Assembly: GCA_003282485.1 (NCBI GenBank)
Contig: QBZD01000002.1
Span: 4,769 to 68,768, forward strand
DNA length: 64,000 nucleotides
Reading direction: 5' to 3'
From: Pelagibacteraceae bacterium AG-333-C14
GTDB lineage: Bacteria > Pseudomonadota > Alphaproteobacteria > Pelagibacterales > AG-422-B15
Each line of letters begins with the position of its first letter. The stretch's first letter is position 1. The translations under genes and the position numbers were made by a program. Positions 4,692 to 58,630 of this stretch are shown here, one piece after another. Under the pieces are notes generated by a model. That model searched no databases. It was not told the DNA's origin and saw nothing but the letters and a program-made list of their open reading frames with translations.

Positions 4692-5735
4692 ATGATAAGG
4701 ATATTTTTTAATATACTTAAGAACCTTGACCCTGAAGTTGCTCACAAATTAACAATAAATGCACTTAAACTTCCAAATCCATTTATTGAAAGCTGTAATG
4801 ATATCTCTATTTTAAGCAATGATATTAACGGACTCAGGTTTAAGAACCCTATTGGAATGGCTGCAGGATTTGATAAAAATGCTGAAGTTATAAATCCATT
4901 ATTCAATTTAGGATTTGGTTTCACCGAATGTGGGACTGTTACACCAAGGCCTCAATTTGGAAATGCTAAACCAAGAGTATTCCGGCTTGCATCAGATAAA
5001 GCGATTATAAATAGACTGGGATTTAATAATAATGGTATCGAAAAATTTTTGATGAATATGAGTAAATCAAATAAAAATGGAGTCCTTGGGGCAAACATTG
5101 GACCGAACAAAGACACAGAAAATTTTATTGATGATTATATTAAGCTATACACTCAAGTAATTGATTATTCAGATTACGTTACAGTAAATGTCTCTTCGCC
5201 AAACACCAAAAATTTAAGAGAGATACAAGAACACGATACACTAAACGCATTACTTAGCGAGTTGTCTCAATTAAGAGAAAACATGAAGACACAAAAAAAA
5301 ATCATCCTAAAAATTGATCCTGATAGTACGAAACAGCATTACAGCATGATACTTAATTTAGTTCAGAAATATAAAATTGACGGTTTAATAGCTACTAATA
5401 CCACTATTTCTCGTCCTCATGATTTAATGGACGAGTATAAAGATGAAGAGGGAGGCATATCAGGACAGCCACTTAAAGAATTATCGAATAAAGTGTTAAG
5501 CTTTCTTTCAAAAGAAACAAATAGAGAATTGTTGCTTATTGGTGCTGGAGGTATTTCAAACGCAGAGGATGTTTATACTAAAATTAAGTTAGGTGCATCA
5601 TTAGTCCAATTGTATACAGCTCTTACTTTCAATGGACCACAAATGATAAATAAGATTAAAAAAGATTTATCATTACTTTTGCAAAATGATGGGTACAAAA
5701 ATATTGCAGATGCAGTAGGGATTATTCATTCATGA
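4692..5735 (+). CDS. pyrD: dihydroorotate dehydrogenase (quinone), class 2
   Basis: 347 aa with 'GFDKNAE', 'GTVTPRPQFGNAKPRVFRL', 'NRLGFNNNG' and 'NVSSPNT'. Confidence 0.9.
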   Translation: MIRIFFNILKNLDPEVAHKLTINALKLPNPFIESCNDISILSNDINGLRFKNPIGMAAGFDKNAEVINPLFNLGFGFTECGTVTPRPQFGNAKPRVFRLASDKAIINRLGFNNNGIEKFLMNMSKSNKNGVLGANIGPNKDTENFIDDYIKLYTQVIDYSDYVTVNVSSPNTKNLREIQEHDTLNALLSELSQLRENMKTQKKIILKIDPDSTKQHYSMILNLVQKYKIDGLIATNTTISRPHDLMDEYKDEEGGISGQPLKELSNKVLSFLSKETNRELLLIGAGGISNAEDVYTKIKLGASLVQLYTALTFNGPQMINKIKKDLSLLLQNDGYKNIADAVGIIHS

Positions 5736-43364: not shown

Positions 43365-44432
43365 ATGGATCCAAACTTAGAAGCAAAAAAAGACAAAGTT
43401 ATTGATCTCATTAACAATCTAGAAGACAGCAACTTTGCATTGTTGCTCTTAATTCATATTTCTCGGTATCAAAATTTATTTTTGCATACAGAACCTGATT
43501 GGTCAAACAGCCCAAATAATTGGATAACTAAAGACAGACGACTCCAAGATGAGTCTATTGGAGTTCTTTCGTTCATCATTCTTTATTCTCTTACCAATGC
43601 ACATGTAGATGAAAATCTTTTTCCTGAATATAGAAAGCAAATTAAGGCAATGAAGCTTGAAGATTTCTTAGATAATAATTTTTTTATTACTCCATTTACT
43701 AATTTTATTGGAAAAAAAATATCTCTCAAAGTTCTTGAGGCATTTTTTTCAATTCCCCGTGAAAATATAAGACGATATATAAATTCTTTGATAGAGGCTG
43801 GATTTATTAGTAAAGACAAAACGTATGGCTATCTTGTAAACATGGAGGCGTATGTTCAATATATATTTACTGACTCTCTTAGTAAAATTATGAAGTCACT
43901 CATGAGAACATTCGATGATATTATTGCTAACCTTGAGGAAAAGTACCAACTAAAATTAAATTTAAAACCAATCTCATCGATAGATTTAGGAAAGACAAAA
44001 CCAGACGTATGGAATCGAATTAGATTGCCTATGTATCATTTTTGGGTAAGAGTTCTAACACTAGAAGGCAATGATCACCTTTTAAGCCCTAATGATAGAG
44101 TTGTCTTGTCTGCATCGATCTATTTTAGGAAACGTACAGGAATATTAAATTTCGCTAATATTTCTGAGTTATACGAAAATGATTATTTATTGCCAACAAA
44201 TATTTCGTCAATTGCAGAGGCATCTAAAATGCCACGAGAAACTGTGAGGAGGTGTAGTAATAAATTAATAAAGATGGGACATTTTGAAAAAAAAGGACGT
44301 CAATTGTTTAGAACTAATTACGCTCATAAAAAAGATGGAGAAATAGCAACATTTATCAAGAATAAAGCAGTTACAACTCGCGACATGATGAATTTTTATT
44401 TTAGAATCTATGAAGATTTAGTTCAGATTTAA
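43365..44432 (+). CDS. hypothetical protein with two winged-helix-like modules (putative DNA-binding regulator)
   Basis: 355 aa with an internal duplication: 'FSIPRENIRRYINSLIEAGFISKDKTYGY' (aa ~128-156) and 'SKMPRETVRRCSNKLIKMGHFEKKGRQLF' (aa ~288-316). Confidence 0.55.
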   Translation: MDPNLEAKKDKVIDLINNLEDSNFALLLLIHISRYQNLFLHTEPDWSNSPNNWITKDRRLQDESIGVLSFIILYSLTNAHVDENLFPEYRKQIKAMKLEDFLDNNFFITPFTNFIGKKISLKVLEAFFSIPRENIRRYINSLIEAGFISKDKTYGYLVNMEAYVQYIFTDSLSKIMKSLMRTFDDIIANLEEKYQLKLNLKPISSIDLGKTKPDVWNRIRLPMYHFWVRVLTLEGNDHLLSPNDRVVLSASIYFRKRTGILNFANISELYENDYLLPTNISSIAEASKMPRETVRRCSNKLIKMGHFEKKGRQLFRTNYAHKKDGEIATFIKNKAVTTRDMMNFYFRIYEDLVQI

Positions 44433-47167
44433 ATTGAGCACATTAAAATAATTTCTTCATTACACACTAGTTCAGCTTCAACAATTGAGCTGTTTTGAGC
44501 GCTTAATTGTGTATCAAGAGCTTCCAGCATAGACTTTGCTTCATTCATTGGCACCGGACCTACAATTATGGAATAGTCGTTTTTATCTAATTTATCGACA
44601 TTGATATCATATTTGAGAAATCTGCTGTCAAATCCCATGACATCGTAAATATAATTCATAAAACTGAATGCAGAATTGCCACGTGTATAGGATCCAATTT
44701 TTATATAAACAAATTCAGCATCGCTGGTATCAATTGATAATTCAGCTTCTTCAATATCACTTGCTTGGGCACTAAATGCATTCGATACAACTTCTGTAGG
44801 CTCTTCGATGAGTTGAGTGAGATCTTCTAATGCTTGAGTTGCTTCTTCAGCTAATTTATTTTCTAATTCAGCAGCATTGCTAAGTTCTGTAAGTAAATCT
44901 CTTGCAGCAGTAGCTTCTTCTACAAGACTATTCTCATCAACAGTATTTAAAATTTTCTTTTTTGGTAAAACACTAACTAATTCTAATGTTTCTTCAGTAT
45001 TATCAACTATAGCCTCATCATTTGGTAAGAGTGGTGCATCTAGTTGACTCTCCATGTCATCAACTTCTGTAATGGCTGCTTCTTCATTATCAACAGAAGC
45101 ATCATCAAGTATATTTTGAGCTTTTTGAAGAGTGTTATCAACAGAGTCTAATAAATCATTAAGACTATCAGCATCATTAATGACCATCTCATTTGAAACG
45201 ACATAATCATCTAAATCAATACTTGGCTCATCGATAATTTCTGTAATCTCTGGAATTTCGTCATCTGTTGTAATGTTGTTCGCTTCTTTTTTATCCAGAC
45301 CCAATTGGATAAGTTTTTTTCTTGCACCTTCACCTTCTTGGGCAAGAAATTCACCCTCATCCATAAATTGAAGTGTAAAATTGTCCTCAACTGAAACAAG
45401 AGCATTTGCAACTGAAACTTTTAACTTAATTCCTGACACATCACTTGGTGGATTGCCCACAAACGATAAATCAGAAGTTAAAAAAGCAAGCCATCTGGGC
45501 AAAGGAGTTCCATCTTCTTGCGTAGCTTGAAAACGTAATTTACCTGGCCCACTGATATTGAAAGTATTTTCCGAAATTTGAAATTTATTACTCGTTTGCT
45601 GTGTATTGATTGGATCATTTATAATCAGAAGCATGGGATCTTGCTCGCTGATAGGAAGATTTACGGCTGCTTGGTAAACTTCTCCCCATTCGGAAAGATT
45701 GGTTTCAATATTTTTACTTACATCCTCAATCGATAAATTTTGATGATTATCAGGAAGAATATCTTTTCCTATTGATGCATAGATTTGACCGATACTATGC
45801 TGCATTTCAGAAAATGCTAGATCTCGTCTGAGTTCCGCAACGAGTAAACTCGCTTCTTCTCGAATAACTTCAAGTTCACCAAATCTTGAGACTTTTTGGG
45901 CATTTTGAACTTGTTTACTTATCCTTTGTGCAACATCTAAATATCTTTGTGCGGTATCATATTCTTCAATGGCCAAGGCATAATTCATATTTGAGAGGTG
46001 TACTTGAGACAGTACTGTCATGGCTATCGCAAGATGACGTTCTGCAATTAAATCTTTACTTGCTTCTGATGATTTTCTTACGGCGCCTAGAGAAAATACG
46101 TTAAAAAGATTAGCTCCAATTGAAGCTCCGTATTCTGTCGTATCTTGGTTTAATAAATATTCATTATCAGAATATCCATACGTGGCATTGAATTTTATAC
46201 TAGGGATCAAACCTAATATAGCTGCTTTAGTATCCTTACTGGTAATTCTTTTTTGATATCGACTTTCCATGAGTTCAGGTCTTGAAACGAGAGCCATCTC
46301 TTCCATTGTTTCTATGCGCATATTTATATTGGTGAGGTAAGTATCGTCGCTTGATAAACTAAACTTTTGGCCAGGTAGTAATCCCATGAGTATTGCAAGC
46401 TCATTTTTAGAATTTATTAATGCCCTTTGTTGAGTTTGTAGCGTTCTCTGTACGTCAAGTAATTCTTTTTGATAAAGCAACGAGTCCATAGGTGCAGATA
46501 TGAGTAGTTCTTCAATATATTGTGAATCTGCAAGAGCAGTTTCAACTCTATCAAGAAGTGGATTCAATTTTTTTAAGAGATTTTCTGACGCTTGCGCTTT
46601 CCAGTAAGCACGAATGATGTCTCGTGTGATATTTTGAGTTGCCTTTCGCTCAAGTTCTTTTGCAATTAAGTAGCGATCTGCTTGCTGTCCAGCACGTATG
46701 TAAGATAATCCAAAGTCAAGAGCATTCCATGTAAATTCAATGTTTCTAGTTTCCAAACCTTTATCTCTTGAAATTGTATAAGACTGTGTTCCATCTAATG
46801 CCGGAGCATCTCCCATATCATTATCTACGCCAACACTTGTTGATGGTTGCAATTCATTAAACTCAGAGTAACCTGCATTGAGTGCAATATCAGGCAGCAT
46901 ATCAAATCGTTGAAGATCACTTTGTCTTTGAGCTAATGCTGACTCCATAACACTTATTCTTAAGTCACGGTTGTTTTTAATTCCAATAGCAATTGCAGTG
47001 TGCAGGTCTATGTTTTCTAGAGGTGCCTCAACTGCAAGCAAAGATAAATCCTTTTGAACACTTACATTTAATTTTTCTGCGTCGATAACATTTGGTGTTC
47101 GAGCGCAGGCGCTGAGTGCGATGAATAGGAAAAATATAATTATTTTTGTACCAATTATTCTCATCAA
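44429..47167 (-). CDS. TolC-family outer-membrane lipoprotein with a C-terminal extension (cadherin-like Ig domain, acidic linker, SPOR-like domain)
   Basis: 912 aa with lipobox 'FIALSAC' (Cys21). The region aa ~30-480 is coiled-coil/beta-barrel like TolC/OEP. 'PLPRWLAFLTSDLSFVGNPPSDVSGIKLKVSV' is a dystroglycan-type cadherin-like motif. A D/E-rich linker of about 200 aa follows. The C-terminus 'YIKIGSYTRGNSAFSF...YSIIVGPVPMNEAKSMLEAL' is SPOR-like. Confidence 0.8.
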   Translation of the reverse strand: MMRIIGTKIIIFFLFIALSACARTPNVIDAEKLNVSVQKDLSLLAVEAPLENIDLHTAIAIGIKNNRDLRISVMESALAQRQSDLQRFDMLPDIALNAGYSEFNELQPSTSVGVDNDMGDAPALDGTQSYTISRDKGLETRNIEFTWNALDFGLSYIRAGQQADRYLIAKELERKATQNITRDIIRAYWKAQASENLLKKLNPLLDRVETALADSQYIEELLISAPMDSLLYQKELLDVQRTLQTQQRALINSKNELAILMGLLPGQKFSLSSDDTYLTNINMRIETMEEMALVSRPELMESRYQKRITSKDTKAAILGLIPSIKFNATYGYSDNEYLLNQDTTEYGASIGANLFNVFSLGAVRKSSEASKDLIAERHLAIAMTVLSQVHLSNMNYALAIEEYDTAQRYLDVAQRISKQVQNAQKVSRFGELEVIREEASLLVAELRRDLAFSEMQHSIGQIYASIGKDILPDNHQNLSIEDVSKNIETNLSEWGEVYQAAVNLPISEQDPMLLIINDPINTQQTSNKFQISENTFNISGPGKLRFQATQEDGTPLPRWLAFLTSDLSFVGNPPSDVSGIKLKVSVANALVSVEDNFTLQFMDEGEFLAQEGEGARKKLIQLGLDKKEANNITTDDEIPEITEIIDEPSIDLDDYVVSNEMVINDADSLNDLLDSVDNTLQKAQNILDDASVDNEEAAITEVDDMESQLDAPLLPNDEAIVDNTEETLELVSVLPKKKILNTVDENSLVEEATAARDLLTELSNAAELENKLAEEATQALEDLTQLIEEPTEVVSNAFSAQASDIEEAELSIDTSDAEFVYIKIGSYTRGNSAFSFMNYIYDVMGFDSRFLKYDINVDKLDKNDYSIIVGPVPMNEAKSMLEALDTQLSAQNSSIVEAELVCNEEIILMCSI

Positions 47168-47350: not shown

Positions 47351-50300
47351 ATGAGCAATAAACTTATTCAGGCCTTGGAACCCCGTCTTATGCTTGACGG
47401 TGCAGCAGTCGCAACTGCAATTGATGCGGTTGATGATTTAGCTCAGTTTCAAAAATCCGAAAGCGACAAGTCATCTAAAGCAGATCACTTCAAAGTTGAT
47501 AAAGACACAAAGTTACCTTTTGTAAATTTAGATGCATCAACTCAAAATGCAAAATCAAGGCAGATTGTATTTATCGATAGTACGGTTGAAGATATTGAAA
47601 CTCTAATTAACAGTTTTGACAACAATACAGACGTGCATGTCATACAAAGTGATCAAGATGGATTTGTTACTATGCAAAATATTTTATCATCGCAAGAAAA
47701 TATAGATGCGGTTCATGTCATTGGTCACGGTAGTGTAGGACAGATTGCCTTTGGTACAGCTGTATTAAACAGTGACACATTAAATACTTATGAAAACATT
47801 CTCCAAGAGATTGGAAATAGTCTCTCAGAAAATGGAGACATTTTATTTTACGGTTGTAACGTAGCCGCAGATCAAAGTGGTGAGATCTTAATCAAACAAA
47901 TTGCAGATATTACTGATGCAGATGTAGCGGCATCAGATGATGTGACTGGTAAGGGTGGCGACTGGGATTTGGAGAAACATACAGGCATCATCGAGACAAA
48001 AAATATTACAGTTGCAGATTATGATTATGCACTTGATGCATACGGAGTAGATTCAATTAATTCAAGTGTTGTTGCTATCCATGATGCGACAAACTATGAG
48101 GCACGTTGGACAGGTGATAGTACTAACCGAGACGGACAACAGGATCCAAGTTCAGATCGATTTGTTTTATCTCAGGAAAGAGCCAGCGTCACTAGTGGCA
48201 CAGGCACATTAAATTTTGACGTCTCTGCTGGAGCAAGTTCATTCACACCCAGTGCAAGTAATCCAGTCCATGTTTATTTGCTTTTCTCTAATGATGAAAC
48301 AAATAGCAATTCGAGAAGACAGGGTAGCAGAGTTGGTCAAGTAACTTTTGATAATGAAATTCTTGGTATTTTTACAAACCCACTAAATACCATTGCAATG
48401 ACAGGGATTTCAAAATCAGGTGCCACATACCCAACATCGAGTTCAGATAAAATTGGAATGAGGGATTTAGAATATAAGAATGACAATGCTCCAGGACAAA
48501 GTGGAAATGGTGACTGGTTTGCAATATCAAACAGTAACAAGACCATTCAAATTGGTACTAAAAACGGTTTAAAAGGTGACTTTGTTCGTATCATTACCAG
48601 AGCACCAGTTTCAAACAATGACCCTGTTGGTAACAATGATACTGGCGCAGTTAATGAAGATGCAAGTGTCTCAGTAAGTTCAGGTAGTGGCGTCTTGTCA
48701 AATGATACAGATGCTGATGGAGATTCACTCACTGTAAGTGCAATATCAGGAGGATCTCTTGGATCAGCTCTAAATGGCACATATGGACAGCTAACCATGA
48801 ATGCAAATGGTAGCTACACGTATACCGCAAATAGAGATGCTGCAGACCCTCTTGATCCAGGCGATACAGTAACAGATACATTTACATACACCGTATCCGA
48901 TGGAACCGATACAGACACCGCAACGCTCACGATTACTATCACAGGAGTTAACGATCCAATAACAGCCGTGAATGATACAGATGCCGTAAATGAAGATGCA
49001 ACCATCAATCGAAGCACTTCAGACTCTCAAGAATTGGACCATGATGATACCGACCCTGATGCCGATGATGCATCTGGAAGCTTCACCATAACAGCAATTC
49101 GAACAGGCAGAGAAAGTGCAAGTGGAACCAGTGGTACGGTTGGACAAGCGCTTACTGGTACCTATGGTGTGTTAACTGTTGCTGCGGACGGTAGTTATAG
49201 TTATGCAGCGACAACAAGTGGTGCAGATGGCTTAGCTCACGGAGCGACAGCAATTGATTACTTCACCTACACAGTCAGGGATCATTCTAGTAGTCCCAAT
49301 GATACAGATACAGCTGAACTTGCAATTACAGTTACAGGAGTTGGACCAGTGGCATCGAATGATACGGGAGCAGTTAATGAAAATGCAACGCTATCTAAAA
49401 ACGCAGGTGCAGGCGTCACTGCAAATGATACAAGCGGTGATACAGAGAGTCTCGATGTAACTGCTATTTCGTCTAATGGTACTGGAACTTCTGGCACAGT
49501 AGGGCAAGCCTTAACTGGGACTTATGGTGTTTTAACATTGAATGCTGATGGAAGTTATTCATATGTTGCAAATACTGCAGCTGCTGAAGCGTTAGATGCT
49601 GGAGACAGTGTAACAGATGTCTTTACTTATACTGTGGCAGATGATGATGATGCAAGTACAGACACGGGAACATTAACAATCACCATTACAGGAGTAGATG
49701 ATGATCCAGTTGGCGTTAACGATACTGGTGCTGTTAACGAGGATGCAACACTTGAAGTTAACCAGGTAAGTAGCGGTGTTTTAGCAAACGATACCGATGC
49801 TGATGCTGATGCAAGTTTAACAGTTTCAGCAATTTCTGGTGGAACTGTAGGACAAGCAAAAAATGGCACATATGGCGCACTTACCTTAGCTTCTAATGGT
49901 ACTTATACTTATGTGGCCAATCAAAGTGGGGCTGACGGCCTTGCTGCTGGTGCCACTGCAACAGACACCTTCACATATACAGTGAGTGATGGAGCAGGAA
50001 CCACTGATACAGCTACTTTAACAATAACTGTTACAGGAATTGGACCACAAGCTGTAGATGATACAGGCGGCGTCAATGAAGATGCAACTCTCACCGTTAA
50101 TGAAGCATCTGGAGTGATCAGTAATGATGATGATAACAGTAGCTTTGATAGTGAAAGTTTAGCAATAACAGGCATTAGAACTGGTACTGAGTCTGGAAGC
50201 GGTTCGGCTGGAACAGTTGGAGCTGCATTAACAGGCACATACGGTCAATTGACAATCGCTGCTGATGGAAGTTATGAGTATGTTGCTAACCAAGCTGCGG

Positions 50301-53300
50301 CCGATGCTCTTGACCCAGGCGATACTGTTACGGATACATTTACTTACACCGTAAAAGATGATGATAATAAAAATGCTGATACTGGTGAGCTTGTTATTAC
50401 GGTAACGGGTATTAATGATGACATCACTGCAGTCAATGATACAGATGCACTAAATGCTGGTGCAACAATTACTCGAAGTACCTCAGATACACAAGAGTTA
50501 GACCATGATGATACAGACCCAGATGCGGATGATGTTTCAGGATCATTTACAATTACAGCAATTCGAACTGGGGCAAGTGAAGGCGCTGGAACCGCTAAAA
50601 CTATCGGACAAGCTTTTACAACGACTTACGGTACTATGACAGTCAATGCAGATGGATCATATACCTATGCTGCTGATCAAAACGGCTCAACAAGTTTGAG
50701 TAATGGAGCAACTGCAACAGATAGTTTCAACTATACTGTACAAGACCACAATAGTGGAGATACAGATACTGCAACTCTCGTGATTACCATTACTGGATCA
50801 AACAATAGAAACCCTGTCGCATCAAATGATACTGGAGTCATTATTGAGGATGGCACACTTACTGTTGCAGATGGTGGTTCTGCAGTTACAGGCTCTGATA
50901 GCAATAACAACAATGAAAGTGGTGACACTACAGGTGATGTCTTAGTCGGGGATACTGATCCTGATGGTGATACCTTAACAGTTACTGCTATTTCAGGAGG
51001 AACAGTTGGAGATGCCGTTACAGGTACATTTGGTACACTGACAATTCATTCAAATGGACGTTACACATATGAGGCTGATCAAGCCGCAGCTGATGCTCTT
51101 GATCCAGGTGATACTGGAACTGATACTTTTACATATACGGTAGGGGATGGAAATGATGGATTTGATACTGCAACACTAACCTTTACAATAATTGGTGCTG
51201 ACGATGATCCAGTTGGAGTGAATGACACAGGGTACATTAACGAAGATGCGACTTTAAGTGTTTCAGATGGCGGTTCTGCAGTAACTGGTTCTGATAGCAA
51301 TAATAACAATGAGAGCGGCGATACAACAGGAGATGTTCTTGCGAATGACACGGATGCGGATGGGGATGCAAGTCTTGTAGTTTCTGCGATTTCTGGTGGA
51401 ACATTAGGCCAAGGAGTAGCGGGCACTTATGGTACTCTGACTTTAAATGCAAATGGTAGTTATTCATATGTAGCTAATCAAAGCGGCGCAGATGGACTTG
51501 CAGCAAATGCAACTGCAACTGATGTGTTCACTTATACCGTAAGTGATGGTACTGGGACAACAGACACAGCAACGCTTACAATTACAGTAAAAGGGGTTGG
51601 TCCAGTTGCAAGCAATGATACGGGCAGTGTGAATGAAGATGCAACGTTATCTGTAAATGCAGGTTCAGGAGTTACGTCAAATGATACTGGCGGTGATACT
51701 GAAAGTCTAGCGGTCACAGCAATTAGAACAGGCACTGAATCAGGCAGTGGATCTTCGGGTACTGTTGGTCAATCATTAACAGGTACTTATGGTACACTTA
51801 CCATCAATGCTGATGGATCATATACATACGTTGCTGATCAAGCAGCTGCCGATGCTTTAGATCCAGGGGACTCTGCTACAGATACTTTTACTTATACTGT
51901 GGCAGATGATGACGATAAAAATACAGATACAGGTGAGATTGTCATAACTGTTAATGGAACAAACGATGATATTGTTGCAGTTAATGACACTGACGCTGTG
52001 AATGAAGATGCGACAATCTCCCGATCAACCAGTGATACACAGGAGCTTGATCATGATGATACAGATGCTGACGGTGATGATGTTCCAGGATCATTCACAA
52101 TTACAGCTATTAGAACAGGATCAGAGAGTGGATCTGGAACGTCCGGAACTATTGGGCAAGCTTTAACAGGCACATACGGCACACTTACGGTTAATGCTGA
52201 TGGATCATACACATATGTGGCTGATCAAAATGCAGCTGACAGTATTGTAACTGGACAGACAGCAACGGATACATTTACTTACACGGTTAGAGATCACAAC
52301 AGTGGATCCACAGATACAGCAGAGCTTATCTTTACAGTAACAGGTATTAATGATGAAAACCCTGTGGCTGTTGATGATACAGACACTGTACCGAAAGGTG
52401 AAACAATTACGAGAGCAGCCGATACAACTTTTGCACTTAACGCAGACGACACTGATGCAGATGGGGAGTCGTTAACAATTTCTGCAATTAGAGTAGGACA
52501 AACTGAAGGCGGTGGAGATTCAGGTACACTCGGTTCAGGTCTTGTAGGCACATATGGTACTCTTACTCTTAATGCTGATGGAAGCTATAGTTACGTTGCT
52601 GATCAGACTGCAGCAGATAGGCTTAAACGAGGAGAGAGTGCAATTGAATATTTTAATTACACTGTAACAGATGGAACAAATGAGGACATTGGTGTGCTTG
52701 CAATTACTGTTACTGGTAAAAGTGATCCACCCGTACCGGTTGATGATACTCTTGCAATTGATGCTGGTGCAACCGGAATAAAAGATGCAACTAATGGTGT
52801 TTTAAATAATGATACGGACCCCGACGGTGACAGTTTAACAGTAGACACTATAAGAACTGGTGAAGAGTCAGGTACTGGCACATCCGGTACAATTGGATCA
52901 CCTCTAACAGGAACGTATGGTGACTTAACTATAAATTCTGATGGTGGCTATGAATACAAGGCTAATAATGCGAAGGCATTAAATCCAGGTCAAACAGCAA
53001 CAGAATACTTTACGTATACCGCAACAGATGGAGAAACGCCTGTAGAAGCTCAGATAGCCATTACTGTGACTGGTATCAATGATCCACCTGAAGTAATTAA
53101 TCCAATTGAAGTGCCTGTATTAGTACAAGGGCAAAAGATTACAATCAGACACAAACAAACCTTTGATGATCCAGATACTGGTATTTATGATATTACTGAA
53201 TACAAAATTATTGATCCTGAGACAGAAGCAGAAACCAGTCTACCAGAAGGTCTTTCATTAAGGGAAAATAAACTTACAGGAAGACTTACTACACCAGGTA

Positions 53301-54454
53301 CATACACTATTACTATTAGAGCAATCGATGGTGCAGGACTCTATGCAGATCATACATTCACCATCACTGTTATTCCAAAGGTCATTATTGAGCCAGAGGT
53401 CGAACAGGCAGAAGGAGATTCATTTTCACTTGAGCCAATTGAACCTATAAAAGTAAAGCCTGCTAAAATGCAGGAAGTCATTAATGAGGTGAATATTATT
53501 GATGATGAAGGCTTTACTCTTGATACAATTTCAATTGCAGATACCGCATCCCTATCTAAGCCGCTTAAGTTTAATGGCGGCCTAAGATTGATGGATGCTG
53601 TTGCGAGCGAGGTATCGGGTGATGATAATACAGATTTAGCGATTGGTGTTAAATTAAATGACGATAATCAAAAGAATGTTGAACTATATTCAGGACAATT
53701 ATCCGACGGACAATCATTGCCTGAATGGATTAAAGTTGATCCTGAAACAGGTGAGACAACTGCAGAAATGCCAGATGGGATTGATCAGGTAGAAGTTCAA
53801 CTTGTTGCGTTAGATAAAGATGGAAATACTCGTGATATAAACATCGTTTTAGACAAAGCTAAAATCAAGAATGACCGAGACTTCACTCGTGGTACTGTTG
53901 GTCAAACTAGAGTTGTTGTTGATAATGACGCAAACGTAAACTTGATCAGAGAGAACAACAATGCATCTAATCAAACAGCAAATAATAACTTAAACGCTCA
54001 AACAGATTTTGAAGGCACAATGAAGTTAAGCAGTCTTCAAATGGATGCAGGCCAATACACAGTTGATGTAATTGATGACAATCAATCGAATGTAAAAATG
54101 TATAAAGCTGAGCTAAAAGGTGGTGTTGAACTTCCAGATTGGATTACGATTGATCCTCAAACAGGAAAAATAGCAGCCGACCCATCTAAAGGTCGAACTG
54201 GATCAGCTGCTCCCTCATTCTTAACAGATAGTCTTCAGGTTCTTGAACTAAAGATTATTGCTGAAGATGAAGACGGAAAAGAAAGAGTTATTGAAGTTGA
54301 GATTGATCTTAATGAAATAACGGGTGCTGAGACAGATGATGAAAATTCAGCATCAGATGACGAAATTTCTTTTATTCCACTTGATGAGCAATTAAAGCTA
54401 CACGCTAAGAGAGCGGATAGCTATGGCGAAAAGATTATATCTCTAGTAAGCTAA
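47351..54454 (+). CDS. giant surface/adhesin-like repeat protein (LEPR-XLL N-terminus, DUF4347, 12 VCBS/cadherin-like modules, 3 dystroglycan-type cadherin-like domains)
   Basis: 2367-aa uninterrupted ORF. N-terminus 'ALEPRLMLDGAAVA', DUF4347-like aa 71-208 ('VFIDSTVED...VHVIGHGSVGQIAFG...ILFYGCNVA...GGDWDLE'), 12 modules of about 105-135 aa ('NDTGAVNEDATL...NDTDADGD.LTV.AI.GG..G....GTYG.LT.NA.GSY.Y.A...AAD.L..G...TD.FTYTV.D......T.TITVTG.ND'), then 'LPEGLSL', 'LPEWIKVDPETG' and 'LPDWITIDPQTG' domains. No GGxGxD RTX nonapeptides. Confidence 0.9.
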   Translation: MSNKLIQALEPRLMLDGAAVATAIDAVDDLAQFQKSESDKSSKADHFKVDKDTKLPFVNLDASTQNAKSRQIVFIDSTVEDIETLINSFDNNTDVHVIQSDQDGFVTMQNILSSQENIDAVHVIGHGSVGQIAFGTAVLNSDTLNTYENILQEIGNSLSENGDILFYGCNVAADQSGEILIKQIADITDADVAASDDVTGKGGDWDLEKHTGIIETKNITVADYDYALDAYGVDSINSSVVAIHDATNYEARWTGDSTNRDGQQDPSSDRFVLSQERASVTSGTGTLNFDVSAGASSFTPSASNPVHVYLLFSNDETNSNSRRQGSRVGQVTFDNEILGIFTNPLNTIAMTGISKSGATYPTSSSDKIGMRDLEYKNDNAPGQSGNGDWFAISNSNKTIQIGTKNGLKGDFVRIITRAPVSNNDPVGNNDTGAVNEDASVSVSSGSGVLSNDTDADGDSLTVSAISGGSLGSALNGTYGQLTMNANGSYTYTANRDAADPLDPGDTVTDTFTYTVSDGTDTDTATLTITITGVNDPITAVNDTDAVNEDATINRSTSDSQELDHDDTDPDADDASGSFTITAIRTGRESASGTSGTVGQALTGTYGVLTVAADGSYSYAATTSGADGLAHGATAIDYFTYTVRDHSSSPNDTDTAELAITVTGVGPVASNDTGAVNENATLSKNAGAGVTANDTSGDTESLDVTAISSNGTGTSGTVGQALTGTYGVLTLNADGSYSYVANTAAAEALDAGDSVTDVFTYTVADDDDASTDTGTLTITITGVDDDPVGVNDTGAVNEDATLEVNQVSSGVLANDTDADADASLTVSAISGGTVGQAKNGTYGALTLASNGTYTYVANQSGADGLAAGATATDTFTYTVSDGAGTTDTATLTITVTGIGPQAVDDTGGVNEDATLTVNEASGVISNDDDNSSFDSESLAITGIRTGTESGSGSAGTVGAALTGTYGQLTIAADGSYEYVANQAAADALDPGDTVTDTFTYTVKDDDNKNADTGELVITVTGINDDITAVNDTDALNAGATITRSTSDTQELDHDDTDPDADDVSGSFTITAIRTGASEGAGTAKTIGQAFTTTYGTMTVNADGSYTYAADQNGSTSLSNGATATDSFNYTVQDHNSGDTDTATLVITITGSNNRNPVASNDTGVIIEDGTLTVADGGSAVTGSDSNNNNESGDTTGDVLVGDTDPDGDTLTVTAISGGTVGDAVTGTFGTLTIHSNGRYTYEADQAAADALDPGDTGTDTFTYTVGDGNDGFDTATLTFTIIGADDDPVGVNDTGYINEDATLSVSDGGSAVTGSDSNNNNESGDTTGDVLANDTDADGDASLVVSAISGGTLGQGVAGTYGTLTLNANGSYSYVANQSGADGLAANATATDVFTYTVSDGTGTTDTATLTITVKGVGPVASNDTGSVNEDATLSVNAGSGVTSNDTGGDTESLAVTAIRTGTESGSGSSGTVGQSLTGTYGTLTINADGSYTYVADQAAADALDPGDSATDTFTYTVADDDDKNTDTGEIVITVNGTNDDIVAVNDTDAVNEDATISRSTSDTQELDHDDTDADGDDVPGSFTITAIRTGSESGSGTSGTIGQALTGTYGTLTVNADGSYTYVADQNAADSIVTGQTATDTFTYTVRDHNSGSTDTAELIFTVTGINDENPVAVDDTDTVPKGETITRAADTTFALNADDTDADGESLTISAIRVGQTEGGGDSGTLGSGLVGTYGTLTLNADGSYSYVADQTAADRLKRGESAIEYFNYTVTDGTNEDIGVLAITVTGKSDPPVPVDDTLAIDAGATGIKDATNGVLNNDTDPDGDSLTVDTIRTGEESGTGTSGTIGSPLTGTYGDLTINSDGGYEYKANNAKALNPGQTATEYFTYTATDGETPVEAQIAITVTGINDPPEVINPIEVPVLVQGQKITIRHKQTFDDPDTGIYDITEYKIIDPETEAETSLPEGLSLRENKLTGRLTTPGTYTITIRAIDGAGLYADHTFTITVIPKVIIEPEVEQAEGDSFSLEPIEPIKVKPAKMQEVINEVNIIDDEGFTLDTISIADTASLSKPLKFNGGLRLMDAVASEVSGDDNTDLAIGVKLNDDNQKNVELYSGQLSDGQSLPEWIKVDPETGETTAEMPDGIDQVEVQLVALDKDGNTRDINIVLDKAKIKNDRDFTRGTVGQTRVVVDNDANVNLIRENNNASNQTANNNLNAQTDFEGTMKLSSLQMDAGQYTVDVIDDNQSNVKMYKAELKGGVELPDWITIDPQTGKIAADPSKGRTGSAAPSFLTDSLQVLELKIIAEDEDGKERVIEVEIDLNEITGAETDDENSASDDEISFIPLDEQLKLHAKRADSYGEKIISLVS
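47375..47395 (+). other. LEPRxLL motif (LEPRLML) at residues 9-15 of the giant protein
   Basis: Direct translation: ttg gaa ccc cgt ctt atg ctt, followed by DGAAVA. It matches the N-terminal motif I recall as the 'LEPR-XLL domain' of very large repetitive proteins, which is frequently followed by DUF4347. Confidence 0.7.
48610..53089 (+). repeat. in-frame tandem array of 12 VCBS/cadherin-like coding modules with a 4-module super-repeat
   Basis: Module boundaries are marked by recurring '...TITVTG(I/V)(N/G/D)D/P' then '(V/I).(A/V)(N/D)DT'. The subtype starting 'I(T/V)AVNDTDA(V/L)N...RSTSD.QELDHDDTD' recurs at 48959, 50423 and 51971, a spacing of 1464 and 1548 nt. Confidence 0.9.
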
Positions 54455-54464
54455 GAAAAACCAT

Positions 54465-55184
54465 ATGAACAACATTGTAACATTTGCAGTTATTGCTTGC
54501 TGTATCTTTTTTCCATTTAATTTACTAGCTGAAGAATATTCAACACGTGTTTTGGTAACTGCAACTGAAGAGGCAACAATATCAAGTGAACTTGCCTCAA
54601 AAGTTGAGTCTATTCCATTTGCAGAAGGTACAAATTTTAAAAAATCAGATGTATTAATTAAGTTGGACTGTTCTTTTTTTGAAGCCCAAAAAGATGTAGT
54701 ACAAGCGGAGTTAGAAAGTGCCATCGTAACCTTGAAGAGCAATCAAGAACTTGCAACGATGAGGTCCATTGGTGAGTATGAAGTTCAATTGTCACAAATA
54801 GCAGTAGATAGGGCTAAGTCAGAGTTGAAAATTGCTCAGCTTAATACAGATCGTTGCATTATACGTGCTCCCTATGACGGAACAATGTCCAAAGTGTTTG
54901 TAAATGAATATGAAAGCATTGAAAGGCAACAACCGATGATTCAAATTATTGGCTCTGGAATATTGGAAGCAAAACTTATGATTTCAAGTAAATGGTTGTC
55001 ATGGTTGTCTGAGGGCCATCCATTGACCATTTTAATTGATGAAAATGGTTTAAAATATAGTGCTACAGTGAATACCTTGGGGGCGAATATTGATCCAGTA
55101 AGTCAAACTATTGACGCTACTGCAAAATTTGATGAAAATTATGAAACATTACTTCCTGGAATGAGTGGGACGGCAACATTTTGA
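54465..55184 (+). CDS. small periplasmic membrane-fusion (HlyD/RND-adaptor-like) protein
   Basis: 239 aa. Signal peptide 'MNNIVTFAVIACCIFFPFNLLAEE', a lipoyl/barrel-sandwich pattern ('ATISSELASKVESIPFAEGTNFKKSDVLIKLD ... IIRAPYDGTMSKVFV') and a short coiled-coil hairpin. It starts 11 nt after the giant gene's stop. Confidence 0.75.
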   Translation: MNNIVTFAVIACCIFFPFNLLAEEYSTRVLVTATEEATISSELASKVESIPFAEGTNFKKSDVLIKLDCSFFEAQKDVVQAELESAIVTLKSNQELATMRSIGEYEVQLSQIAVDRAKSELKIAQLNTDRCIIRAPYDGTMSKVFVNEYESIERQQPMIQIIGSGILEAKLMISSKWLSWLSEGHPLTILIDENGLKYSATVNTLGANIDPVSQTIDATAKFDENYETLLPGMSGTATF

Positions 55185-56524
55185 ATGATAATTCCTCTAT
55201 AAAAATTGCGCGACTAATAACACTTGAGAAAAAGTTTCGTAATGCAGAAACTGAAACTGAGCTTACTTTTATTTGTGCCAATGAACTGCGAAGCATAGTT
55301 GATTATAATTTTTTATTCCTTCTCAACAGATCAAGTATAAATCGATTAAAAGTACATACTATTTCTGACCTATCAATTATCGATAGAACAGCACCAACGG
55401 TTACTTTTGTTGAAACATTAATAAATAAAAAAGATCTAGTCAGCTTTGAGGATATTTCGGAATTTAATCTCAACGATACTTCAATAAAAGACTTAAATCT
55501 TATTACTCCTGATAATTTTCCTAAACAATTAATATTTATTCCTCTACGTTCGCGGATTGAAAAAAATATTGGGTATCTAGTCATGGTTAGATCAGAAGTA
55601 ATCAGCAACTCTGAAAAAGATCTTTTACTTCATATTTCAGAAACTTTTAGTCATGCACTCAACTCTTTTAGGTCAAAAAATACAATCATTTCAAATATCA
55701 ACCGTTTATTTACTGGATGGATTAAATGGGCAGTGATTGCTTCTGTAACGGCAGTAATGTTTTTTCCAATTAGTATGACAGCTTTAGCGCCCGTTGAAGT
55801 AGTTGCAAAAGATCCAACCGTTGTGACTTCACCTGTAAATGGCGTGGTAAAAGAAGTTTTAATTAAGACCAATGAAAACGTAAAGCCAGGGACAGAACTT
55901 GTCAGATTGGATGATTTAAATTTTAAAAATCAGTATGAAATTGCGCTTCAAGAGCTTGAAGTGGCAGAAGCAGAGCTTTTACGCATCAAGCAGTCATCAT
56001 TTACAAATCCAGATGACAAAGCTCGTTTAGTTGAGCTATCAACAGAAGTAGGATTGAGAAAAAAAGAAGCAGCATATGCTGAAGAACAATTGAAATACTC
56101 AATCATCTATGCAGACAGAGAAGGTATTGCTGTTGTTGAAGACTTTACTGATTGGCAAGGGAGGCCAGTTAACATTGGAGAAAAAATATTAACCATAGCT
56201 GATCCTGAACAAATTGAATTTCAAATCTTCTTACCCACTAAAGACTCTCTTTTGATTAAAAAAGAAGCAAGAGTAAAAGTTTTTTTAGATAGTGACCCTC
56301 TCAATTCTTTAGACGGTAAGGTATTGCGTACTTCATATAAACCCGCACTTACATCTGAGAATATTTTAGCTTATAAGATCGTTGCAAATTATCATGACAG
56401 TCAAGGTGAGGTTCCAAGGATTGGTTTACGTGGTACCGCTAAGATTTATGGCGAAAAGACAAGTATTTTTTATTACATATTCCGTGTTCCTATAAATCTC
56501 ACGAGACAGTTTTTAGGATTTTAA
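55181..56524 (+). CDS. membrane-fusion (HlyD-like) protein with a cytoplasmic GAF-like N-domain
   Basis: 447 aa. A soluble N-domain of about 170 aa is followed by one TM ('WIKWAVIASVTAVMFFPISM'), then 'VVTSPVNGVVKEVLIKTNENVKPGTELVRLDD', a coiled coil and 'IIYADREGIAVVEDF'. 4-nt overlap with the upstream gene. Confidence 0.75.
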   Translation: MNDNSSIKIARLITLEKKFRNAETETELTFICANELRSIVDYNFLFLLNRSSINRLKVHTISDLSIIDRTAPTVTFVETLINKKDLVSFEDISEFNLNDTSIKDLNLITPDNFPKQLIFIPLRSRIEKNIGYLVMVRSEVISNSEKDLLLHISETFSHALNSFRSKNTIISNINRLFTGWIKWAVIASVTAVMFFPISMTALAPVEVVAKDPTVVTSPVNGVVKEVLIKTNENVKPGTELVRLDDLNFKNQYEIALQELEVAEAELLRIKQSSFTNPDDKARLVELSTEVGLRKKEAAYAEEQLKYSIIYADREGIAVVEDFTDWQGRPVNIGEKILTIADPEQIEFQIFLPTKDSLLIKKEARVKVFLDSDPLNSLDGKVLRTSYKPALTSENILAYKIVANYHDSQGEVPRIGLRGTAKIYGEKTSIFYYIFRVPINLTRQFLGF

Positions 56525-58630
56525 ATGATCGTTCCATATCTAAGACAAGATTTAAAATTGAGCGAGGGTCCCAAAAAAGAGGATGGCTCTTCATCATGGC
56601 TTCTATATGACTCTTTAAGAAATAAATATTTTTCGATAAATAAAAATGCTTTTGATCTTTTAAATAATTGGTCAAGTGGATCTCAATTAGAAGATTTTAT
56701 AAAAAAAATTAATGAAACTAAATTATTAGTAACTAAAGAAGAAATAAGTGAGTTCATAAATTTTCTTGATCAAAATAATTTAACGATCAAAAAAACAAGT
56801 GAAGAAATTAAATCTTTAGTAGTTCAAAAAAACAAAACCAATAAACATTGGTTGCTCAAACTTATTCACAATTATCTATTTTTCAAAATACCGTTAGTAA
56901 GACCTGGTACTTGGCTTCAAAGAAGTTTACCCATTGCCTTATTCTTGAGCTCATTAACAATCAGACGTATTATTTATGGGCTAGGTTTAATCGGAATATT
57001 TTTGACAATAACTAATTATGAGAATTTCCTTTCAACCTTTTCATATTTCTACAACATTAATGGTCTGATCTTATTTGGAATTACAATTGTTTTTGTAAAA
57101 GCATTACATGAGTTGGGTCATGCATATGTAGCTACATACTATAAGTGTAAAGTTTCATCAATTGGCTTAGCCATGTTGGTTTTCTTTCCATTCTTGTATA
57201 CGGATACATCCGATGCCTGGAAACTCACTGATCACAGAAAGCGTTTACTAATAAATTTTGCAGGCATGTTAACTGAACTGCACCTAGCCTTAATTGCTAC
57301 ATTTGCATGGGCCGTATTTCCTGAGGGCATCATGAAAAGTGCAGCATTTTTCATTGCTACATCAAGCTGGATCTCATCTTTATTGATCAATATAAGTCCT
57401 TTTATGAGGTTTGATGGCTATTATGTGCTATCAGACTTTCTTAAAGCTGAAAATTTGCAACCACGCTCATTTGCTTTAGGTCGATGGCAGATAAGAGAGT
57501 GGCTTTTTGGTTTTAAATTTCAACCACCTGAACAGTTGATAGCTAACAGAAGGTGGACTTTTATAATTTACGCATGGGCTACGTGGATTTATCGTTTCTT
57601 CATTTTTATTGGTATTGCATTATTGGTTTACTATTTAACATTTAAAATATTAGGAATTATTTTATTTGTAATAGAAATTGTATGGTTCATTTTATTGCCG
57701 ATTGTCAGAGAAGTCATACAATGGTGGAAGCTTAGAAAATCTATGAAATTCAATAGATCTTCTATGAGGTCAATGATCTTATTTGCAGTTTTTATGTTTG
57801 CTATGCTTGTTCCATGGCGCACATCCCTTAGTTTGCCAGCTGTTATTGAAGAAGGTGTTGTTCTTGATATCTTTGCCTCTGAAGATTCAAAGATAAGAAA
57901 GGTTTTTGTTTCGCATGATCAATACGTAGCTGAAGGAGACTTGCTTGTTATTATGGCCAACCCATTGATCTCTAATAAAGTCGAAAAAGCAATTGACCGC
58001 GTGAAAATGATTCAGCAAAAACTTGATCGTAGAGTGGGATCAGAACTTGATCTTAGCAATCTACTAATACTTGAGAACGAATTACAAAAAGAGATTGAAA
58101 TTCTGAATTCATTGAAAGAAGAAAACAAAGCTTTATCAATTTATGCACCATCAGATGGCATAATAAAAGATTTGATAAGTCTAACCGCTAATCAATGGGT
58201 AAATAAAAAAGATAAGCTATTTTCAATTGTTCAGTCAGAAGAAGTGCAAGTGAAAGCTTTTGTTAGCGAGACGGATCTTGATAAAATAAAAAAAGTTTCA
58301 AGTGGTTACTTTCATGCAAAAAATAATGAATTTGCGAAAGTCAAAGTCGAATTAGTATCATCAAATGTAACTTCAACCGAAGAGTTGCCGTATTTGGCTC
58401 TGACCTCAACTTATGGAGGCACAATTGCATCAAGAGAAATACTTGGAAAGAAACAGGTTCAGAGACCTGAAAATGCTGTTTATCAACTAAATTTCACTTC
58501 CTTAGAAAACCTAAAAGATTTGCAATGGCAGACAGCTGGATCTGTTAAAATAGATTCTGAGAATTATAATATTTTTCAAAATATATTTAATGCTACTACC
58601 TCAATACTCATCCAGGAAAGTGGGTTCTAG
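56525..58630 (+). CDS. fusion protein: PqqD/RRE-like N-domain, polytopic M50 (site-2-protease family) zinc metalloprotease and C-terminal HlyD-like adaptor domain
   Basis: 701 aa. 'KALHELGHAYVA' gives HExxH in a TM helix and 'FMRFDGYYVLSD' is a candidate third zinc-ligand motif, with about 8 TM. C-terminal 'DIFASEDSKIRKVFVSHDQYVAEGDLLVIMANP', a coiled coil and 'IYAPSDGIIKDLI'. The N-terminal 'WLLYDSLRNKYFSINKNAFDLLNNWSSGSQLEDFIKKI...EFINFLDQNNL' is PqqD-like. Its ATG directly abuts the upstream stop. Confidence 0.8.
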   Translation: MIVPYLRQDLKLSEGPKKEDGSSSWLLYDSLRNKYFSINKNAFDLLNNWSSGSQLEDFIKKINETKLLVTKEEISEFINFLDQNNLTIKKTSEEIKSLVVQKNKTNKHWLLKLIHNYLFFKIPLVRPGTWLQRSLPIALFLSSLTIRRIIYGLGLIGIFLTITNYENFLSTFSYFYNINGLILFGITIVFVKALHELGHAYVATYYKCKVSSIGLAMLVFFPFLYTDTSDAWKLTDHRKRLLINFAGMLTELHLALIATFAWAVFPEGIMKSAAFFIATSSWISSLLINISPFMRFDGYYVLSDFLKAENLQPRSFALGRWQIREWLFGFKFQPPEQLIANRRWTFIIYAWATWIYRFFIFIGIALLVYYLTFKILGIILFVIEIVWFILLPIVREVIQWWKLRKSMKFNRSSMRSMILFAVFMFAMLVPWRTSLSLPAVIEEGVVLDIFASEDSKIRKVFVSHDQYVAEGDLLVIMANPLISNKVEKAIDRVKMIQQKLDRRVGSELDLSNLLILENELQKEIEILNSLKEENKALSIYAPSDGIIKDLISLTANQWVNKKDKLFSIVQSEEVQVKAFVSETDLDKIKKVSSGYFHAKNNEFAKVKVELVSSNVTSTEELPYLALTSTYGGTIASREILGKKQVQRPENAVYQLNFTSLENLKDLQWQTAGSVKIDSENYNIFQNIFNATTSILIQESGF
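57107..57121 (+). other. HExxH zinc-binding motif (HELGH) of the M50 protease domain
   Basis: cat gag ttg ggt cat, in frame with the 56525 ORF (residues 195-199), inside a hydrophobic segment. Confidence 0.8.

Follow-up and report, generated by a model that had tools for sequence, protein, structure and literature searches.

The 64,000-nucleotide stretch analyzed here (the window; positions 4,769 to 68,768 of contig QBZD01000002.1 of Pelagibacteraceae bacterium AG-333-C14) encodes on its plus strand, at 47351 to 54454, a giant adhesin-like protein of 2,367 amino acids (aa) that consists of a short N-terminal LEPR-XLL motif, a DUF4347 domain, 12 Cadherin_4/Big_9 repeats, and a He_PIG domain. 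Around this gene lie four others, referred to here as the cassette, which encode a TolC-family outer membrane factor, two membrane fusion protein (MFP) adaptors, and an inner membrane core in which a PqqD-like domain, an M50 metalloprotease, and a further MFP domain are joined. From comparison of sequences across genomes, we consider it fairly probable that the motif serves as a dedicated signal, a leader or targeting element at the N terminus, and commits the giant adhesin, as cargo, to the TolC-dependent apparatus encoded around it. Residues 1 to 208, as quoted in an earlier prediction made from the DNA alone (the original prediction), are identical to the translation of the cargo open reading frame (ORF).

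The candidate export tag, of the "FDGAA" subtype of LEPR-XLL, occupies residues 5 to 24 of the cargo (47363 to 47422, plus strand; LIQA-LEPR-LML-DGAAVATAI). The motif call made in the original prediction is confirmed by NCBIfam model NF012209 (alternatively labeled LEPR-8K or "LEPR-XLL domain-containing protein"), which matches residues 6 to 25 with 19.4 bits (curated cutoff of 17; E value of 5.8e-4), and the LEPR motif itself starts at residue 9, that is, at the extreme N terminus of a 2,367-aa repetitive protein. It is also conserved: among 102 homologs of residues 1 to 220, many of which are short pieces of giant genes split in metagenome assemblies, 56 N-terminal fragments carry LE[P/Q/S/A]R-h-h-[F/L], located 4 to 45 residues (median, 15) after the called start and 37 to 87 residues (median, 63) ahead of the first DUF4347 strand, and often preceded by a Lys/Arg-rich stretch. 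A 20-residue leader profile, built from the N termini of 30 distinct cassette-linked cargoes, has the consensus [L/S][L/I]x[A/S]-L-E-[P/S/A/Q/K]-R-[M/I/L/V]-[L/M/V]-[F/L]-D-[G/A]-A-[A/V]-[A/V]-A-T-[A/V]-A, in which the Glu and the Arg are invariant in all 30 tags and the Asp is present in 29. In a six-frame translation of the whole 64 kb, the profile finds the cargo N terminus as its unique match (E value of 1.1e-9, with the second-best hit at 1.7), and when run against 10,161 ORFs, drawn from 87 loci and from part of the window, it matches nothing but cargo N termini.

No classical Sec or Tat signal is apparent in residues 1 to 70, as judged by composition only and in agreement with the original prediction: the cargo N terminus has no twin-arginine motif, the longest uncharged run within these 70 residues is the Asp-flanked, 8-residue GAAVATAI, and the conserved Glu, Arg, and Asp of the tag fall inside what would be its hydrophobic core. 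The RTX domain is likewise absent, as had been stated, with no HemolysinCabind match and 0 GGxGxD motifs in the cargo. Tag and DUF4347 are separated by an acidic/polar linker (residues 26 to 70; 47426 to 47560, plus strand) that is predicted to be disordered (AlphaFold2 [AF2] predicted local distance difference test [pLDDT] score of 42 to 56) and that varies in both length and sequence among homologs. At the other end of the protein is a short conserved motif, FIPLDEQL (residues 2341 to 2348; 54371 to 54394, plus strand), which conforms to a pattern, [F/L]-x-[P/A/T]-[L/F]-x-x-Q-[L/V], situated ~25 to 40 residues before the C terminus and common to cargoes of distant taxa (FIPLDEQL in SAR11, GAPTLGQQLQ in Pseudomonas, GAPSLAAQVD in Escherichia coli, RPAFSRQVAQ in Azospirillum, ARFSAQLD in Qingshengfaniella, and Colwellia as well). 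This motif may act as an additional signal or as an anchor.

The outer membrane factor (912 aa; 44429 to 47167, minus strand) is encoded divergently from the cargo, matches OEP with 117 bits, and has a lipobox-like N terminus. Its residues 481 to 912 (44429 to 45727) form a 430-residue C-terminal extension in which an Ig-like He_PIG domain and a long acidic stretch of low complexity are followed by a terminal domain of ~100 aa; the extension resembles parts of giant cargo ORFs elsewhere (at locus L057 with an E value of 5e-92, more weakly at L074 and L027), and channel and cargo look as if they share one module. The remaining three cassette genes follow the cargo gene on the plus strand. The first encodes MFP1, a short periplasmic adaptor of 239 aa with a hydrophobic N terminus (54465 to 55184; TIGR01730, 105.7 bits against a cutoff of 94.9), whose placement next to the M50 fusion is a conserved arrangement across loci. 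The second encodes MFP2 (447 aa; 55181 to 56524), composed of an N-terminal cytoplasmic domain of ~170 aa, a transmembrane segment, and an MFP domain. Residues 1 to 170 of MFP2 (55181 to 55690) match no Pfam family in the window protein, and their counterparts at loci L091 and L099 are GAF domains, which suggests that a small molecule or a signal may feed into the apparatus.

The third gene encodes the core (701 aa; 56525 to 58630), which combines a PqqD-like N-terminal domain (approximately residues 1 to 105; 56525 to 56839, plus strand), a polytopic M50 metalloprotease, and a C-terminal periplasmic MFP domain. Its M50 site is intact, with HELGH at residues 195 to 199 (57107 to 57121, plus strand) and N289...D297-G298, and 38 diverse homologs all retain H195, E196, H199, N289, D297, and G298. 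Pfam assigns Peptidase_M50 (PF02163; 37.2 bits, cutoff of 27.2) and HlyD_3 (45.7 bits) to this protein, whose C-terminal domain matches MacA, EmrA, and HlyD in the PDB; its best-scoring curated family is daptide_HExxH (130.6 bits over residues 23 to 390, below the family cutoff of 300), and its closest relatives, at up to 97% identity, come from uncultured Pelagibacteraceae. The window cassette thus contains three MFP domains and an OEP protein, and none of its proteins has a C39 peptidase or ATP-binding cassette (ABC) match in Pfam or NCBIfam. We rejected a small precursor of a ribosomally synthesized and posttranslationally modified peptide (RiPP) as the real substrate, because just 10 bp separate the cargo gene from that for MFP1 and the genes of the cassette overlap or directly adjoin one another, which leaves no room for one.

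The linkage between tag and cassette extends across many genomes. The M50-fusion family comprises 4,405 relatives at E values of ≤1e-10 among the candidates scored and, when clustered at 50% identity, 2,647 representatives at ≤1e-30, at least 150 of which are full length (~700 aa). When genomes, one for each species, were scanned with the aligned sequences of diverse family members, 571 of the first 600 matching stretches encoded a relative, and the best 80 loci (M50-HlyD homologs at 32 to 97% identity, each taken with as much as 10 kb of sequence on either side) were kept for ORF calling and profile searches. These loci, which include Pelagibacteraceae, Colwellia, Marinomonas, Halomonas, Pseudomonas, Azonexus, Hyphomicrobium, Methylobacterium, Nitrospira, and "Candidatus Scalindua," share the gene order TolC, MFP (~250 aa), MFP (~450 aa, GAF type), and M50-MFP (~700 aa), with a TolC homolog present in 47. 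A giant ORF whose N terminus matches the tag profile occurs in 38 of the 80; in 19, a same-strand giant ORF is cut by the locus edge, leaving its N terminus out of reach; in another 19, the flanks are too short to judge; and 4 have full flanks yet no tagged giant ORF (one of these with adhesin fragments upstream). The four-gene cassette adjoins a tag-bearing giant protein in at least five phyla. No ABC ATPase at a conserved position emerged from all-against-all clustering of the ORFs in the 80 loci, and a hidden ABC transporter in the cassette was rejected as a candidate, the ABC genes in these loci being scattered and mostly on the opposite strand.

The same association recurs on finished plasmids. 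On IncF plasmids of E. coli and Citrobacter, independent annotation shows a 4,459-aa protein that starts MTTIKNRRLRPRAHRFALESRQLFDGAALAETA and continues with DUF4347, followed by TolC, two MFPs, and M50-MFP, and an Azospirillum brasilense plasmid carries the same set of tagged giant and cassette. The E. coli version is present in 24 of 5,426 complete E. coli genomes at ≥99% identity (21 places on plasmids and 4 chromosomal). More generally, the complete combination of tag/DUF4347 giant and cassette is found on IncF plasmids of E. coli, Citrobacter, Hafnia, and Kosakonia (loci L089 and L090 represent E. coli NZ_CP081687.1).

Tag and DUF4347 are adjacent in 37 of the 38 tagged cargoes just described. 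Cargoes with only one of the two show the cassette following the tag, not DUF4347. Tagged giants that lack DUF4347 but have a cassette next to them occur in Halomonas litopenaei (tag LEARVLLDAAS, then Asp-rich repeats), in Methylosinus sp. C49 (an 8,847-aa protein with ...TLEPRVLLNADVLAV), in Pseudohalocynthiibacter (...ETYEPRLLLSADLFP, in a gene that spans the plasmid origin), and at one metagenome locus (L126). Conversely, 40 Phaeobacter plasmids bear a DUF4347 protein and no cassette, and in the one that was read (NZ_CP081226.1), the protein is untagged and begins directly at DUF4347. Other untagged DUF4347 proteins are those of A. brasilense Sp7 p3, with C-terminal GGxGxD RTX repeats; of Acaryochloris, with a Sec signal and a TPS domain; and of Dolichospermum. 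There is no cassette in the examined flanks of these four untagged examples, and overall, DUF4347 occurs in cargoes of four different export routes.

The original prediction had treated motif and DUF4347 together as a possible sorting tag. The identification of DUF4347 itself (residues 72 to 219; 47564 to 48007, plus strand) is secure, with 166.3 bits to PF14252 against a gathering threshold of 24.6, and the motif remains the candidate sorting element; DUF4347, however, is better regarded as an independent module, and that part of the proposal does not stand. AF2 models residues 71 to 220 with a pLDDT of >90 and residues 1 to 70 as disordered. The top Foldseek match in the PDB is 9qpe_G (Tce1/PA0256, itself a DUF4347 protein; E value of 5.9e-6), followed by caspase-3, caspase-7, and legumain (2e-4 to 3e-3), and the DUF4347 region has a marginal Pfam match to Peptidase_C80 (E value of 0.0065). 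A putative catalytic dyad is formed by His126 (47726 to 47728, plus strand) and Cys169 (47855 to 47857, plus strand), and H126, G168, C169, and G177 are invariant in 45 sequences. The fold matches and the invariant His and Cys together indicate a protease-like module rather than a sorting element; on the strength of the models, we assign DUF4347 to the clan CD caspase/C80-like cysteine protease-like modules, with proteolysis putative, and its role is probably processing after export. A report on Tce1 terms it a putative cysteine protease, gives as its top structural match the TcdB protease domain, with the His/Cys dyad aligned, and describes its loading into Hcp3 of a type 6 secretion system (PMC13323088). 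That tag and DUF4347 are separable follows from homologs that begin directly at DUF4347.

A sister cassette supplies further evidence for a role in protein export. The cassettes of Methylosinus and Pseudohalocynthiibacter are paralogous to that of the window, their M50 fusions being ~26% identical to the window's, and we refer to them as type 2 and to the window's kind as type 1. Directly downstream of the type 2 M50 fusion lies a gene for a 638-aa SecA-like protein (SecA_DEAD, 347 bits; ~640 aa at L099, 9979 to 11895; at L100, 10051 to 12057; and at L091, 930 to 2777, minus strand), of which the Methylosinus copy is labeled "prepilin peptidase" in the plasmid gene table. It has the preprotein cross-linking domain and a second nucleotide-binding domain (NBD1 and NBD2 are both present) and no wing/scaffold match. 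In SecA, a two-helix finger engages SecY; given the established SecA structure, the missing wing/scaffold match, and a length of only 638 aa, the SecA-like protein probably has no such finger. The other type 2 genes encode DUF3467, GAF-MFP, short MFP, and TolC proteins, and the same arrangement is seen at metagenome locus L091, whose cargo begins LEARLLFSAD and carries DUF4347. At that locus, M50 and SecA-like sequences appear as a 1,383-aa "M50-SecA fusion"; we rejected the explanation that this is a mere assembly artifact, since two finished plasmids carry a separate SecA-like gene at the same position and the adjacency is therefore real, although a true fusion of the two proteins is doubtful in so noisy an assembly.

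A metagenome scan for type 2 cassettes, with the three proteins from Methylosinus, Pseudohalocynthiibacter, and L091 as queries, found 531 relatives among the first 600 matching stretches, from which 80 loci were kept. In 53 of the 71 loci with enough flank, the SecA-like gene comes next after the M50 fusion, whereas no type 1 locus, the window included, has a SecA-like gene. All five cargo N termini visible in these metagenome loci read LEPR[V/L]LLSAD, continuing in four cases (one a duplicate locus) into DUF4347 and in one not, so that tag subtype covaries with cassette subtype: "hhFDGAA" with type 1 and "LEPRxLLSAD" with type 2. With a protein translocation ATPase encoded in the type 2 cassette, a real protein export function is hard to avoid. 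Type 2 cassettes also have, ahead of the GAF-MFP gene, a gene for a DUF3467 protein of ~106 aa (30 of the 80 metagenome loci; L099, 5501 to 5821; L100, 5661 to 6005), which adjoins a type 1 cassette once (L085, 1837 to 2196) and might encode a cargo chaperone.

That the neighboring PqqD-like/M50/HlyD genes read the tag, as the original prediction suggested, thus has strong comparative support in the tagged giants at 38 of 80 loci and in the way in which the cassette tracks the tag, with recognition as such being what we infer from this pairing. PqqD-type domains bind RiPP leaders, and M50 enzymes remove N-terminal prosequences or leaders, SpoIVFB, for example, acting on pro-sigma-K. The proposed apparatus would contain no transporter of the ABC, resistance-nodulation-division (RND), or major facilitator superfamily (MFS) type; it would consist of a single-polypeptide inner membrane core, two further adaptors, and a TolC-like channel, the core itself joining a cytoplasmic PqqD-like peptide-binding domain, an M50 intramembrane metalloprotease of the site 2 protease type, and a periplasmic HlyD domain. 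In such a system, the PqqD-like domain would capture the unfolded N terminus in the cytoplasm, as RiPP recognition element (RRE) domains capture RiPP leaders; the M50 site would remove or release the tag within or after its Ala-rich stretch; the polypeptide would be threaded from N to C terminus via the adaptor/TolC conduit; and the cadherin-like repeats would fold outside the cell. The most likely driver is a SecA-type motor, because the sister cassette encodes its own truncated SecA-like ATPase, and for the window, this motor would be the housekeeping SecA. More tentatively, and as a possibility that we hold with less confidence than the targeting role of the tag, the tag and the PqqD-M50-MFP/GAF-MFP/MFP/TolC cassette may together constitute an unnumbered secretion system for giant surface proteins that has no ABC, RND, or MFS transporter, a core derived from a site 2 protease, and a SecA-type motor, dedicated in type 2 and borrowed in type 1.

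Several observations weigh against this interpretation. Type 1 cassettes encode no energy source, and we know of no case in which an M50 membrane domain conducts proteins. The shared C-terminal motif could be the true export signal. Four tagged DUF4347 giants (at L006, L092, L093, and L097) show no cassette within the flanks examined, and that of L093 has RTX repeats; a cassette may lie elsewhere in the respective genomes. Other objections concern the PqqD assignment: the N-terminal domain of the window core gets no Pfam PqqD match, and NF050069 (PqqD_rel_WgkC) reaches E values of 1e-3 to 4.5e-5 against the core but only 23 bits against a cutoff of 110; among 27 homologous N-terminal domains, Pfam PqqD matches 2 and an NCBIfam PqqD model matches 4; hhalign comparison with a genuine (Klebsiella-type) PqqD alignment is not significant; and the AF2 model of core residues 1 to 115 is poor (pLDDT of 57). 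A profile search of the domain against PDB sequences likewise gave no PqqD or RRE match. Type 2 N-terminal domains exceed the Pfam PqqD threshold (28.7 and 27.3 bits against 23.4) and bear the PGAP name "PqqD family protein," and type 1 and type 2 domains align collinearly (hhalign E value of 0.0017 over 99 columns). The assignment for the window protein is weak, and this hhalign match to the type 2 domain is its best support.

Three other explanations of the tag compete with a leader read by the cassette. N-terminal retention modules of adhesins of type 1 secretion systems (T1SS) plug TolC until a dedicated protease releases them, and the folded domain of ~150 aa directly behind the tag, together with the C-terminal motif common to cargoes of SAR11, Colwellia, Pseudomonas, E. 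coli, Azospirillum, and Qingshengfaniella ([F/L]-x-[P/A/T]-L-x-x-Q-L), would suit a LapA/LapG-like arrangement of this kind: an export signal at the C terminus, secretion from C to N terminus, and a tag and DUF4347 that enter last and are held by the PqqD-like/M50 core until cleavage by M50 or DUF4347 lets the protein go. We regard this as unlikely, since a C-terminal signal would have no ABC transporter to recognize it, some tagged cargoes are devoid of DUF4347, and the SecA-like motor of type 2 favors an N-terminal signal and threading from that end. The SecA-like motor also speaks for a specialized Sec-type signal, in which SecA or its paralog would read the tag and the cargo would cross via SecYEG, the M50 protease only clearing or cleaving the signal in the manner of RseP and the adaptors and TolC serving only the passage from periplasm to outside; so do the basic residues that often precede the tag, the Ala-rich segment after it that ends in A-x-A-like triplets, and a mean hydropathy of 1.73 in the best 12-residue window. 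But a Glu and an Arg that never vary and an Asp that rarely does sit inside the only hydrophobic stretch, where uncharged runs span 7 to 16 residues (median, 10; 8 in the window), and the tag is conserved across phyla far beyond what Sec signals are. The SecA-like protein, moreover, with 638 aa and no wing/scaffold match, is probably without the finger that engages SecY, and the PqqD-like domain, which itself lacks a signal sequence, would be expected to lie in the cytoplasm. A Sec-type signal thus seems to us improbable, slightly more so than retention.

The least likely of the three, with little in our view to recommend it, is that LEPRxx(F/L)|D-G-A is a cis cleavage site or propeptide of the neighboring DUF4347 protease and unrelated to the cassette. 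Cleavage by C80 domains falls after Leu and before a small P1' residue, DUF4347 has a C80-like fold and dyad, and the near-constant adjacency of tag and DUF4347 in type 1 cargoes (37 of 38) would be accounted for. Each element, however, occurs without the other, the tag without DUF4347 doing so beside cassettes; the linker that joins them is long, variable, and disordered; and AF2 does not dock the tag on DUF4347, with residues 1 to 30 at a pLDDT of 50 to 63.

Among known systems, a leader signal read by the cassette resembles most closely, in function, the leader-dependent bacteriocin exporters and the T1SS adhesin systems, and the cassette lacks what defines either of them, having no ABC transporter, C39 peptidase, GG leader, or RTX. 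As in the double-glycine exporters of the CvaB/CvaA/TolC type, an N-terminal leader would be recognized, and probably cut, by a protease of the inner membrane component, and MFP and TolC would provide a one-step route through the envelope. Unlike in these exporters, the protease is an M50 zinc enzyme in place of a C39 cysteine peptidase, an ABC domain is absent, an MFP is fused to the protease and two others differ from it and from each other, the cargo measures 2,000 to >11,000 aa and is no peptide, and the leader reads LExR...FDGAA and not GG or GA. With the T1SS RTX adhesins (LapA/LapBCE with LapG, MpIBP, and SiiE), the system has in common giant, repeat-rich adhesins of the Ca-binding type, an MFP and a TolC-like channel encoded beside the cargo, and an N-terminal cargo element that presumably interacts with the machinery; it differs in that the cassette has no ABC transporter and the cargo has no RTX nonapeptides and no recognized C-terminal T1SS signal, its conserved signal being N-terminal. 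The RTX-bearing DUF4347 protein of A. brasilense Sp7 p3, by comparison, has neither tag nor cassette.

RiPP leader systems, with their PqqD-type RRE domains and M50 leader peptidases, provide the nearest parallel to the core. Such peptidases are the daptide protein MpaP (NF041824, named "daptide biosynthesis intramembrane metalloprotease" by NCBIfam) and Bacillus subtilis YydH. The core likewise joins a putative PqqD-like domain to an intramembrane HExxH protease, and if our reading is right, here too a domain dedicated to binding would recognize a short conserved peptide at the substrate's N terminus. Unlike RiPP leader peptidases, the core is fused to an MFP and encoded in a TolC cassette, its substrate is giant, no modification enzymes accompany it, and its daptide_HExxH score falls below the cutoff. 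DUF4347, for its part, resembles the C80 domains of MARTX, TcdA, and TcdB and also Tce1 (PA0256; PDB accession number 9QPE) in its caspase-like fold and His/Cys dyad and in being embedded in a large secreted protein; it differs in its marginal sequence similarity to C80, and dependence on inositol hexakisphosphate is not expected in a free-living marine bacterium. Finally, the type 2 cassette recalls accessory SecA2 pathways in pairing a dedicated SecA paralog with a dedicated substrate that has an unusual N-terminal signal, although the paralog is truncated and accompanied by M50-MFP and TolC, not by SecY2 and Asp proteins, and the window cassette has no such gene.

Giant adhesin-like genes are, to our knowledge, among the largest bacterial genes, and we know of no export route for most of them; those without a known route include the well-known SAR11 giant gene, SAR11 being the most abundant bacterium in the sea, and the giants with LEPR-XLL that occur in phototrophic consortia. 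If the pairing of tag and machine is true, it would explain how thousands of giant proteins arrive at the surface, make cargoes predictable from sequence, and add a TolC-dependent route whose inner membrane component falls outside the ABC, RND, and MFS classes, which are those that the standard 2021 review lists for such components (PMC8277102). Carriers of the proposed system include SAR11, Pseudomonas, Nitrospira, and anammox planctomycetes as well as plasmids of E. coli. We regard it as a variant of TolC/MFP-dependent secretion, and there is a substantial chance that it merits recognition as a separate secretion system. Because it is complete on E. coli IncF plasmids and also present in culturable Pseudomonas and Azospirillum, it is directly testable. 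In the literature found, mentions of LEPR-XLL go no further than cataloging it as a domain at the N terminus of giant proteins (PMC10868602; bioRxiv 10.64898/2026.03.19.712371), and our search, from which most subscription journals were excluded, so that an earlier description is possible, found no description of the cassette or of LEPR-XLL function.

Immediately beyond the core, and convergent with it, lies an oligopeptidase B gene (58637 to 60679, minus strand; NF007511, E value of 9e-190), whose product the original prediction had speculated to degrade the released leader. This link fails: the adjacency is confined to the window and a 94%-identical locus (L008) and absent at the other loci, SAR11 loci elsewhere having a photolyase gene or a Wzy_C/urease gene cluster downstream instead, and we conclude that it is a coincidence. 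On the other side, just beyond the TolC gene, is a gene for a 355-aa protein (43365 to 44432) with two weak winged-helix/helix-turn-helix-like halves and without a counterpart in any other locus examined.

In long-read metagenome assemblies, a giant cargo gene appears as a string of many short ORFs (as at L007 and L091 and in many of the 102 homologs), and databases consequently list numerous "DUF4347 proteins" of 120 to 380 aa that are really N-terminal fragments. A separate family of short DUF4347 proteins was accordingly rejected for at least some of these entries, the cases looked up (L006, L007, and L091 to L093) all being split giant genes; many other short entries sit on contigs of 0.5 to 5 kb. 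In Pseudomonas loci, genes for a GNAT acetyltransferase, a phage tail collar domain protein, and a sulfotransferase lie between cassette and cargo (L078, 12216 to 12719; L073, 13231 to 13848; L077, 14143 to 14988), and in Azospirillum, a GNAT gene and two "tail fiber protein" genes lie just upstream of the cargo (L088, 686 to 2765); these may be conserved accessory or modification genes.

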